A stretch of 64,000 nucleotides of DNA, from NCBI RefSeq assembly GCF_016026235.1, contig NZ_CP065614.1. One strand, 5' to 3'. The position numbers are program-made. This document shows positions 34,301-37,300 of this stretch, piece by piece. The first letter of the stretch is position 1. Each line of letters begins with the position of its first letter. The DNA is from Escherichia coli. Lineage in GTDB: Bacteria > Pseudomonadota > Gammaproteobacteria > Enterobacterales > Enterobacteriaceae.

Positions 34301-37300
34301 TCATTGTCTTTCAGGTGGTTATATGGCCCGTTCAGCTAAACCCCGTAAACGTAAACCCGCCTCTCAAAGAAGCAAACTTCCCCGCTATGTCGTGAAGCTT
34401 CACGAAGATGATTTTTTTGACGAAGAAGACGCAGAAGTTCTGCGCTTTGATAGTTTTGACGATGCCGTTGAATGCTGCGCAGACCTGAATATTCCGTTCT
34501 TTGTGGATGCGGGAAACAAAAAGCTGGTCTTCTGGTTTGTACGTGTTGATGACGAAGGGTATCCGGAAATCGCCCGCTGCACGGAGCGGGAATTTGCGAC
34601 CATTCTTTCCGGTATCAGCGCCGGCGGTATGTACTGCCCGGAGTGTGGCACGGTTCACTGGCCGGACGGAGTCGCCCCGCCCTTCTGATGCTTCCCCGTT
34701 TTGCCGATATCTTTCAGCAGGGAAACCGCTGGCTTAACTGGCTGGAGAAGCAGCCGGAAGGGGCAGTACGTCCGGTGGTGATTGAGTCGGTGACCAAAAT
34801 CATGGCGTGCGGGACCACACTGATGGGGTATACACAGTGGTGCTGTTCATCACCGGACTGTTGCCATACAAAAAAGGTCTGCTTCCGGTGTAAAAGCCGC
34901 TCCTGCCCGCACTGCGGGGTGAAGGCTGGCGCACAGTGGATACAGTATCTGCTGAGCCTGGTCCCCGACTGCCCATGGCAGCATATTGTGTTCACGTTAC
35001 CCTGCCAGTACTGGTCCCTGGTGTTCCACAACCGGTGGTTGCTGGCAGAGATTAGCCGCATTGCAGCGGATGTGATACTGGAAATCTGCCATCAGGCAGA
35101 TGTGGAGCCGGGGATATTCACGGTGATCCACACATGGGGGCGTGACCAGCAGTGGCATCCGCATATCCATTTATCGACAACTGCCGGTGGTGTGACGTCG
35201 GGCCACACCTGGAAAAATCTTCATTTTTACGCCCGTAAGGTGATGAGCATGTGGCGCTACCGGATAACACGGTTACTGTCACGGAAATACCCTGACCTGG
35301 TGATGCCAGATGCGCTGGCAGCAGAAGGAAGCAGTAAACGGGAATGGAATCGCTTCCTGGACACGCATTACCGCCGTGGCTGGAATGTCAACGTATCCCG
35401 GGTGATGGATAATGCCACCCATGTGGCGGTGTACTTTGGCTCTTACCTGAAAAAGCCACCGGTGCCGGTGAGTCGTCTGGAGCATTATGCCGGTCAGGAT
35501 GAAATCGGACTGCGTTACAACAGTCACCGAACAAAACGGGAAGAATACCTGTTGATGAGTGGAGATGAGTTCATGGAAAGGTTCTCCTGGCATGTGGCGG
35601 ATAAGGGGTTCCGTATGGTGAGGTACTACGGTTTTCTGAGTCCGGCGAAACGGCGGTTACTGGAAGAAGTGGTGTACATCATAACGGAGACAGTGAGAAA
35701 AACGGCGATGCAAATCACCTGGAGAGGGATGTATCAGAGGTTACTGAAGGTTGACCCGCTGAAGTGCGTGCTGTGCGGGAGTCAGATGCGTTTTACGGGG
35801 CTGAAGCGGGGCTACCGTCTGGCAGAGCAGGTCCTGATGCATGAGCCGCTGGCCCGGATGCGGTGGTGCGGCTGAGAGCCGCAGAGGGTAAGTAGCGTCC
35901 ATTTTGAGGGAAACGGAGCAAAAAACCGCCATTCATACCCTGAATCAATCAGAGCCATCCAGTTTAATCGTCGGTTCCGTTCATATGAGCAAAAGTGGTG
36001 TTGAAGAAACATCCGTTTTGTGGTGTTTTTTTAATCTTTTTGGGGTTTTAATTCCTATCGATGAACGGAAGACGTTCAGCATAATCCCCCGGAACAGCGT
36101 TTCCTCATTCAGCGGGGCAAGGATAAAGGGGTCCGCTTGGAATTCGGAAATTTTCCCACGCTAAGAGAATTGAGTTAACGAGTGGTTACGTCCAGGCCAG
36201 CTAACTCACTGAACGTAAAGGCTGTACGAAATGTTCTGACCGTCCGATAACCGTCTGGCTTACTTCCGTACATTCCCTTGCGTGGATGTACAGAATTGTA
36301 CGATTTCGGACACCAAAACCGCTGTTATCCCGCCATCTTGGCGATTCCTGAAAGTCATTTATCTAAAAAATAGTCTTAACGTGGTTTATTTTCCGAATTC
36401 CAAGCGGACCCCTCAATAGACAGCGTGAATATCGATGGTTGCGCCACAGGCATGAGCATATTTTGTCAAAGTTTTCATGCTGGCCCCTAAAGGGTTACTT
36501 TCCAGGCGACTGATGGCTGACGGGCGTAACCCCATTCGTTCGGCCAGTGCTGACTTTGTTAATCCCGCTTTTTCTCTCATTTCGTATAACATTTCCACCA
36601 TCTCCAGTTCTTTGTCAGCATCCTCATACCCTTTGACAGCTTCTGGAGTACTGAGTAGTTTTTGCTTTACCTGGCTGAATGGAACACCTTTTACTTTCAT
36701 CAGTTCATCTCCTTCAGACGCATCCTGGCAATTTCAATAGCTTTCGTTGGTGTCTTTTGCGTTTTTTTCACAAATGCATGCAGCAGATAGATTTCGTTAC
36801 CCGTTGCATAAGCGTACAGTGTCCTTGCGATATTTTTATCCCCGACTCTCAGTTCAAAAAGCCCTCCGCCAATTACACGGCTGTGAGGCATTTTCATTTT
36901 GTTACCTTCCTGTTCCAGCCGTTCAATCAGTCTGGTCATACGACCACGCAGATTGTCTGGTAATTCTAGAAGTTCATCCAGTGCGGCCGGGTGAGTAATC
37001 ACATTAAACATATTATAGCCTCCAGAATGACAAAATACACTAAAACAGGAAAATTGCGCAAACAGTAAATTTCATCAATAAATGAAAATACACTCTGAGT
37101 TCGGAGGGGGGCAACTGGAGAAGAGGGATTTTTTGATGCCGCGTTAGCGGCATGGAAGGCGGCACTCCGTTGTTGCATATGGCACAGGAGTAAAACCGCC
37201 GAAGCCCGGCGTAAGCCGGTACTGATTGACAGATTTCACCTTACCCCCGTTACTTTATTCGTACCCCTTATAATGGGGTGTTAGCCAGCCAGACCCGGCA

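Follow-up and report, generated by a model that had tools for sequence, protein, structure and literature searches.

A probable miniature Tn3-family element with a res-like interior beside a higBA module in an Escherichia coli plasmid

In a stretch of Escherichia coli DNA from a Shigella-type virulence plasmid (contig NZ_CP065614.1; the window, 64,000 nt, in whose numbering all positions are given), a gene-less segment of 285 bp at 36128..36412 lies directly beside a toxin-antitoxin gene pair of the HigBA kind. We interpret this segment as a non-autonomous Tn3-family miniature element, a Tn3-derived inverted-repeat miniature element (TIME), that keeps both ends together with a res-like site from its parent's tnpR-tnpA spacer, and we put the probability of this reading at roughly 0.8. 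An earlier, sequence-only reading of the window had described a TIME-like element here, and the description is now supported by the terminal inverted repeats (IRs), by full transposases found with the same ends, and by the recurrence of the element in hundreds of plasmids.

Ends and gene content of the element

The element and its parts are as follows.

36128..36412 (+): probable miniature Tn3-family element (TIME), whole and gene-less, 285 bp; 100% identical copies in pINV-type plasmids of Shigella dysenteriae and enteroinvasive E. coli
36128..36165 (+): left 38-bp terminal IR, 36/39 to the tnpA-proximal IR of locus L090
36375..36412 (-): right 38-bp terminal IR, its tip abutting the higA-like stop codon
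36199..36313 (+): res-like region, colinear by Smith-Waterman alignment with the tnpR-tnpA spacer of relatives
36223..36272 (+): putative resolvase half-sites, being conserved interior columns, TGTACGAAA (36223-31), CGTCCGATA (36241-49) and TGTACGGAA (36264-72, minus strand)
36287..36312 (+): putative crossover subsite (site I-like), TGTACAGAATTGTACGATTTCGGACA, aligning with the palindrome CGTACGAAACCGACCGGTTTCGGTCA beside tnpA in relatives

The left repeat, GGGGTCCGCTTGGAATTCGGAAATTTTCCCACGCTAAG (36128-36165, plus strand), and the right repeat, GGGGTCCGCTTGGAATTCGGAAAATAAACCACGTTAAG (36412-36375, read on the reverse strand), are both of the GGGG...TAAG type and match at 33 of 38 positions, the outermost 23 nt perfectly. 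A repeat search of the region returned a single strong inverted pair (36127-36171 versus 36369-36413), and the Tn3-family pattern GGGG-N30-TAAG falls exactly on 36128-36165 (+) and 36412-36375 (-); the chance expectation for such an arm pair within 400 bp in 64 kb is ~4e-8. The Tn3-type 38-bp inverted repeats of the sequence-only reading are thus real on alignment and beyond chance, and its right border stands, whereas its left border (36119, for a length of 294 bp) was 9 nt off, GGGG starting at 36128. When aligned to IRs of the Tn21 subgroup and of the integron mobilisation unit (IMU) type, the element ends match at 28-31 of 38 positions.

The borders read ...GGATAAA/GGGGTCCGCTTGGAATTCGG on the left and CCGAATTCCAAGCGGACCCC/TCAATAG... 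on the right, where the tip CCCC (36409-36412) directly abuts TCA (36413-36415), the stop codon of a minus-strand gene for a 95-aa helix-turn-helix (HTH) antitoxin, just as had been proposed for a HigA-like gene. The open reading frames (ORFs) that touch the element (36282..36419 and 35904..36164) are mechanical only and both extend into the flanks, so that its earlier description as ORF-less holds in substance, and a tblastn search of the element finds neither TnpA nor TnpR. Small size, the lack of a transposase gene, and ~38-bp terminal repeats of Tn3 type are all shared with TIMEs. Nor is the segment the end of a larger transposon in the window plasmid, an alternative that the sequence-only reading had named.

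The interior resembles the res site of autonomous relatives

The window segment 36199-36313 aligns colinearly, over ~115 nt, with the tnpR-tnpA intergenic region of autonomous transposons that have the same ends. Smith-Waterman comparison of the element interior with 420 nt around each tnpA start, with z-values taken from shuffles, gave the following scores.

L153 (E. coli chromosome): 186, z not computed
L090: 172, z 8.7
L047: 157, z 7.9
L025: 131, z 5.0
L034: 131, z 4.2
L029: 121, z 4.8

Loci L027, L072, and L074 gave no significant alignment in the same test (z 0.3-0.9). The alignments have 63-64% identity with at most two single-base gaps, and begin with the base that directly follows the start codon of tnpR. 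As a control, 300-nt windows were slid over the entire loci, and the tnpR-tnpA spacer came out top in five of five, against locus medians of ~70. The authors of TIME244 regarded Smith-Waterman scores >100 (SSEARCH defaults) as significant res similarity (PMC13367494); our scoring scheme differs from theirs and the values are not directly comparable, so we judge our scores by the shuffles and by the controls over whole loci.

The tnpR-tnpA spacer of L090 holds TGTCCGAAT, TGTACGAAA, TTTCGGACA, and the palindrome CGTACGAAACCGACCGGTTTCGGTCA, and the element has the same kinds of half-sites. Half-sites of the TGT(A/C)CGAAA type hold their position and form the conserved interior columns across five lineages; position and symmetry make 36287-36312 the candidate crossover subsite. 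Judged by these alignments, the interior descends from the parent's res and is not junk, and the element, like other res-bearing TIMEs, has an internal site homologous to the parent res. Because the interior is homologous to the res of autonomous relatives, the design would be that of IS101: two ends plus a res, needing both TnpA and TnpR in trans.

Autonomous relatives and cargo elements with the same ends

Autonomous transposons with ends beginning GGGGTCCGCTTGGAA, and with tnpR and tnpA diverging from a res between them, are widespread in Enterobacterales. An ORF of ~1000 aa ends inside the IR, as in Tn3, in L025, L027, L029, L047, and L072, and the Tn3 transposase model NF033527 scores ~1200 bits (cut-off 500) for each of three such ORFs scanned; a divergent tnpR lies upstream of tnpA in five loci. 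A complete 6.6-kb transposon is present in a Klebsiella michiganensis plasmid (L090 2472..9060, NZ_CP041514.1), with divergent tnpR and tnpA and a chromate and arsenic cargo, and its tnpA-side IR matches the element left IR at 36 of 39 positions. Among Pantoea, Vibrio, Brenneria, Erwinia, Xenorhabdus, and Klebsiella, the TnpA proteins of this lineage share 84-100% identity.

Unnamed autonomous transposons with GGGGTCCGCTTGGAAAACGG ends (L090, and L153 on the chromosome of E. coli EC2641) have their terminal 15-23 nt identical to the element, related inner IR parts, and a homologous res region (63-64%) with the same half-site layout. They differ from it in encoding TnpA (994 aa), TnpR (192 aa), and cargo, none of which the element has, and in IR positions 14-18, which read AAAAC in the autonomous relatives and AATTC in the element. 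Among the 5426 E. coli genomes, just 61 contain a nearly complete autonomous module. A tblastn search of the window found no TnpA or TnpR of this lineage, the lone match being a tnpA remnant of another lineage (33963-34226, 36% identical), and the copy in the window is therefore an orphan. A parent was also sought beside solo IR matches in E. coli plasmids and chromosomes, where there is only insertion sequence (IS) debris.

Transposase-less units of 3-4 kb also lie between the same IRs (L062 2460-5508, L063 4455-7502, L024 3651-7040, and L070 1162-5499); one has a 675-aa ORF, and two have target duplications (TAAAT in L062; TGTTA or TTGTTA in L024). These units have the appearance of non-autonomous cargo elements belonging to the same lineage. 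In a Photorhabdus cinerea draft genome (L008-L019), many contigs start or stop ~105 nt from an outward-facing IR of this lineage, which suggests that a high-copy element with these ends broke the assembly. A solo 39-nt IR of the lineage (37/39) lies beside an autotransporter gene in a chromosomal island common to several E. coli strains (e.g., L006/L007 9001-9039).

Distribution of the miniature element

Identical copies of the element lie between ospC1/ospD3 and ospE2 in virulence plasmids of S. dysenteriae and enteroinvasive E. coli. More widely, 2168 PLSDB plasmid records match the 285-bp element, 565 of them over at least 80% of its length, and matches are present in 1502 of 5426 complete E. 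coli genomes (near full length in 537, or 9.9%), overwhelmingly on plasmids. A unit of 284-287 bp recurs across hundreds of plasmids of several incompatibility groups in differing contexts, the outcome that the sequence-only reading had looked for in a search of other plasmids, and the 565 plasmids with full-length copies and the at least 25 distinct flank pairs represent the multiple sites expected of a TIME. The contexts include pINV, IncK2/Z, ColV/ColB-M, 8-kb ColE2-type, IncP-like, and IncFII plasmids, and in IncI-gamma/K1 and B/O-like plasmids the element sits just past a parA-like partition locus. Every record inspected either leaves the element unannotated or places over it a spurious hypothetical protein, which is not consistent between records.

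Truncated forms are commoner than full-length ones, and include nt 1-205 (IncFII), nt 1-87 (IncI-gamma/K1), internally deleted copies (~93-166), and hybrids; some of their breakpoints fall near nt 167-185. The 23-nt tip was found at 82 loci in many Enterobacterales in a scan of one genome per species, and full-length homologues (70-76% identical, 285-287 bp) occur in Citrobacter, a metagenome-assembled Enterobacterales genome, and two Xenorhabdus species. Across five miniature-element lineages, the IRs (87-97%) and the half-site columns are conserved, and the spacers drift.

Two hybrid copies (L095 4001-4185 and L097 4001-4200) consist of the first ~170-185 nt of the element followed by a gamma-delta/IS101-type terminal IR (...CGTACGTTTTCGTACAGTTGCCCCTCAATCCCC), with the switch falling inside the putative site I; these could be TIMEs with heterologous ends or products of recombination at res. 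A copy in an IncP-like plasmid (L096 3908-4119) is without ~nt 93-166, which is most of the res-like region, and abuts an IS101/gamma-delta-type IR.

Flanks of the element and the missing target duplication

The element is bordered by these features.

34234..36061 (+, right end approximate): IS91-family element, left of the CPBP fragment, with a 410-aa transposase at 34643..35875
36062..36127 (+): left flank, 66-bp fragment of a CPBP-family endopeptidase gene of the IncFII backbone
36413..36700 (-): HigA-like antitoxin, 95 aa, HTH_3 (Pfam)
36700..37011 (-): HigB-like toxin, 103 aa, Gp49/PF05973 (Pfam); RefSeq label RelE/ParE family

The sequence-only reading predicted a 5-bp target duplication, and this prediction failed, both at the copy in the window, where the flanking 5-mers are ATAAA on the left and TCAAT on the right with no direct repeat, and at every E. 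coli-type copy examined. E. coli-type copies thus depart in this respect from other TIMEs, and the simple insertion that marks an active TIME is documented only in a single distant homologue, L081 of Xenorhabdus (71% identical), which has a perfect TAAAT/TAAAT duplication. This homologue, together with the duplications at the cargo elements L062 and L024, indicates that the ends of the element are correctly defined. Published TIMEs may also be without repeats, as in IMU composites and MITESen1 (PMC13367494).

The CPBP endopeptidase gene, which comes after repA in IncFII plasmids, is severed exactly at the left tip of the element; the intact gene continues ...GGATAAAGATGGTCAGC, and this continuation is missing right of the element. 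The reciprocal junction (element right end, ATAAA, and the remaining CPBP gene) is the trace expected from a simple insertion or a cointegrate partner, and it is absent from 72,556 plasmids. The CPBP fragment, stranded with the IS91-family element on one side and the miniature element on the other, is what is left of an IncFII-type replicon region in this part of the virulence plasmid.

Flanks at other copies also change at the tips. At the IncI/K/B/O site, a constant left flank (...AATATTAAT(A)) is combined with at least three differing right flanks, each starting at the tip (AGTAAG, ATGAGC, or TATCAG) or with truncation, and L137 joins a ColV-type left flank and element body to a right flank from another context, with the switch within the last few bases at the tip. 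A crossover at res was considered as the origin of the swapped flanks and set aside, since in L137, the single clear recombinant, the switch sits at the tip and not at res. Changes of flank at the tips are as expected of replicative transposition with unclean cointegrate resolution, or of action within one molecule, by adjacent deletion or by inversion; a further contribution can come from recombination between copies. Because the element sits between the CPBP fragment and higBA without a target duplication, the copy in the window is best read as an orphan scar of replicon fusion, deletion, or recombination, rather than as a fresh simple insertion. That the pINV copy is specifically a joint between a remnant of the IncFII backbone and the higBA module we regard as an even bet.

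The toxin-antitoxin pair itself gave only sub-threshold matches to NCBIfam models, and its assignments were settled by Pfam. The same higBA (92-96% identical) is present in two further plasmids (L149 and L150), in which homology stops at the identical base, immediately before TCAATAG; their neighbours at this border differ from each other, are IS91-family sequence in both, and include no copy of the element. In L150, no IR was found in the left neighbour of higBA, which is an IS91-family 3′ region, and in L149 a copy of the miniature element lies on the opposite side, 110 bp upstream of higB, without a duplication. HigA is neither truncated nor extended by the element, and, since the border at its stop codon is found in two plasmids that lack the element there, the sharp border is not the element's work alone. 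The identical higBA 3′ border is thus found in three plasmids, next to a different neighbour in each (IS91-family sequence in two), which suggests that the module was moved or trimmed by IS91-type one-ended transposition.

Proposed mechanism and alternative explanations

The mechanism that we propose is that of the established Tn3-family pathway. A related TnpA, acting in trans, would nick the 3′ ends of the element and join them to an AT-rich target; replication would then yield a cointegrate holding two copies of the element, to be resolved by the cognate TnpR at the internal res, or by RecA. The sequences themselves show the anatomy of the element, its family and parent lineage, the homology to res, the lack of duplications, and the change of flanks at the tips; we infer the binding and catalysis by TnpA and TnpR on the element, as well as the history of the joint, and the mechanism is taken by analogy from Tn3-family biology. 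The autonomous relatives are candidate partners for mobilisation in trans. Were a related transposon to arrive in the cell, the orphan copy could move, or could become a site of recombination or immunity, and the element may give its plasmid immunity against such a transposon.

Several points weigh against the interpretation as a TIME with a parental res. Neither 5- nor 6-bp duplications were seen at E. coli-type copies (~8 plasmid contexts and ~25 metagenome flank pairs), and homologous recombination between copies could be an alternative cause of the swapped flanks. A blastn search of the element against the parent res detects no similarity, the putative res being assigned from the 63-64% alignment and the motif positions, and it is ambiguous which element IR descends from which parent end. 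Lastly, the border at the higA stop codon occurs without the element, and IS91-family activity may have had a part in the joint, at least on that side.

We speculate further, tentatively and with the odds against us, that the element acts as a portable joint, a cassette of res plus IRs that, time after time, brings about the fusion, trimming, and re-sorting of modules in the virulence, colicin, and resistance plasmids of Enterobacteriaceae. It would do so through unresolved or mis-resolved cointegrates, adjacent deletions, or recombination at res; if true, this would explain the copies at module borders, the lack of target duplications, and the pattern of one constant and one variable flank.

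An unlikely alternative, yet the one that survives best, is that transposition was the origin only, and that the element is now a domesticated recombination site, at which a resident serine recombinase resolves multimers or exchanges modules, or a site of IR-based immunity. The half-sites and IRs are conserved across lineages as spacers drift, there is usually one copy per plasmid, often next to partition or stability genes, E. coli-type copies have no target duplication at all, and copies outnumber autonomous partners by ~9:1 in E. coli; all of this would fit such a role. However, no serine recombinase of this lineage is encoded in the window or beside the copies inspected, and the many truncated or internally deleted copies (1-205, 1-87, and the ~93-166 deletion), without obvious replacement, argue against strong selection on the element. 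The immunity version is drawn from Tn3 and gamma-delta biology only.

We consider it very improbable that the inverted repeat is a chance or structural feature, such as a terminator or stabilising hairpin of the higBA transcript, or a structured small RNA. The element does begin right after the higA stop codon, and the whole unit folds as a long hairpin (-103 kcal/mol, z -6.6), which is a consequence of the IRs; the interior by itself is no more structured than expected (z 0.13), searches of the element for Rfam families, terminators, and promoters came up empty, the arms are canonical Tn3-family IRs common to real transposons, and other plasmids have higBA with the identical 3′ border but no element. 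A one-off origin in this plasmid, as an internal-deletion derivative or end-pair of a larger transposon, would suit a region that is a graveyard of IS and transposon fragments, but is refuted by the presence of the unit in hundreds of plasmids of several incompatibility groups, and by its counterparts in other genera, which are 70-76% identical and equal to it in length and architecture; we rate it slightly lower still. Least credible of all is a small protein-coding gene, for which a 45-aa ORF (36282..36419) is listed and a hypothetical protein is annotated across part of the matching segment in some RefSeq records: the ORF leaves the element into the flank, annotated ORFs vary by context (that of L003 begins within the right IR and extends into unrelated sequence), and family alignments have indels and no frame conservation.

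Comparison with named miniature elements

Reference sequences of IS101, IMU, MITESen1, and TIME244 were taken from Table S2 of PMC13367494. The element was tested for identity with each, and only the IRs align, the interiors being unrelated. It is closest in design to IS101, a 209-bp TIME of pSC101 that is mobilised and resolved by Tn1000/gamma-delta, with TnpA for cointegrates and TnpR for resolution supplied in trans (PMC13367494). Both are gene-less, with a 38-bp Tn3-family end on either side of an internal res site; IS101 belongs to another lineage, with IR identity of 18-21/38 and no interior similarity, and its res is experimentally functional, whereas that of the element is predicted from homology only.

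In kind, the closest are TIME244 and IMU. TIME244, a 244-bp TIME of Enterobacteriaceae plasmids (Gomi & Yano 2026, PMC13367494), also has a putative res recognised by Smith-Waterman similarity to the parent res, and its Tn21-subgroup-like IRs match those of the element at 27-30/38. Its interior is unrelated, and it forms resistance-gene composite transposons with flanking 5-bp repeats, none of which was seen for the element. IMU (Poirel 2009), a 288-bp integron mobilisation unit mobilised in trans by a Tn21-subgroup transposase (PMC13367494), is nearly equal in length and has the closest IRs among the named TIMEs (28-31/38), but its interior is unrelated, no res similarity is detected in it, and it is rare, with 7 genomes (PMC13367494).

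According to a 2026 survey, ISfinder held just three Enterobacteriaceae MITEs (miniature inverted-repeat transposable elements; PMC13367494); the element is none of these and is absent from that TIME survey. The IR sequence yielded nothing in the literature, and no description of the element was found among the listed titles and abstracts on MITEs of Shigella/pINV or on Tn3-family MITEs of E. coli plasmids. It is apparently a new, or at least unnamed, TIME, which might already carry a name in ISfinder or TnCentral.

Miniature Tn3-family elements escape standard annotation, and in E. coli the family of this one is about 10-fold more common than those TIMEs that have recently been connected with the movement of resistance genes: named TIMEs occur in 0.06-2.3% of Enterobacteriaceae genomes (TIME244 in 0.94% of RefSeq Enterobacteriaceae genomes; PMC13367494), compared with 9.9% of complete E. 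coli genomes for the element. With its probable res, it sits at borders of virulence, colicin, partition, and toxin-antitoxin modules, and knowing of its presence helps to explain mosaic junctions in pINV and other plasmids, and predicts where an incoming related transposon could trigger fusions, deletions, or mobilisation. Elements of this kind are well known, and the value lies in a catalogue entry and a testable model rather than in a new principle.

Other Tn3 relics in the window

Further Tn3-family remains lie to the left of the element.

22714..22770 (+): solo 57-bp tip of another transposon, identical to 33881-33937
31461..31481 (+): Tn3-family IR tip, same lineage as the element, identical to the L090 IR at 21/21 positions
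31482..31601 (+): end of an IS5075/IS4321-type element of the IS110 family, inserted in that IR and cut by an IS91-like fragment
33881..34233 (-): tip and 3′ tnpA remnant of another Tn3 lineage, truncated by an IS91-family element

The sequence-only reading had pointed to most of these, placing a solo IR-like sequence at 31452, a Tn3-family tnpA C-terminus at 33909..34210, and an identical 56-bp Tn3 end at 22716 and 33876, all as related relics. The solo IR exists, 9 nt from that position, as the outer 21 nt of a Tn3-type tip (31461-31481), and it is indeed of the same lineage as the element. The tip is interrupted after nt 21 by an IS5075/IS4321-type end, itself cut by the IS91-like fragment; IS5075 and IS4321 reportedly insert into Tn21-type IRs at this position, an observation attributed to Partridge and Hall in 2003. 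The ~120 nt that follow (31482 to ~31601) recur in >5000 plasmids directly beside IS5075-family transposase genes, and the 141-bp stretch 31461-31601 as a whole matches >5000 plasmid records.

The tnpA C-terminus was correctly identified (it matches NF033527 positions 861-951, E 3.5e-26), and its ORF runs on the minus strand from 33909 to 34304, further right than had been given. The repeated Tn3 end is likewise present, as identical copies of 57 bp at 22714-22770 and 33881-33937, and comprises the last nine codons and stop codon of the tnpA remnant plus 28 bp. Its tip, GGACCAGCGGG, does not start with GGGG, and borders three unrelated flanks, one of them a 933-aa tnpA in an Enterobacter hormaechei IncR plasmid (L147 5001-5060); the 57-bp tip is a genuine end of a second Tn3-family lineage. 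The proposed relatedness of the scattered relics thus extends to the 31461 tip and not to the tnpA remnant and the 57-bp end, whose TnpA (36% identical) and tip are of a different lineage, and the relics of the window come from at least two Tn3 lineages.

Two observations concern MITESen1-type ends. A Tn3-family transposon with MITESen1-type IRs, a recombinase gene, and a tnpA with an internal stop lies beside the lactate-utilisation genes lutABC and lldP (L099 33320-37185), and may be an autonomous relative of MITESen1. In an IncFII plasmid (L093 2951), a MITESen1-type IR lies 50 bp from a truncated copy of the miniature element.

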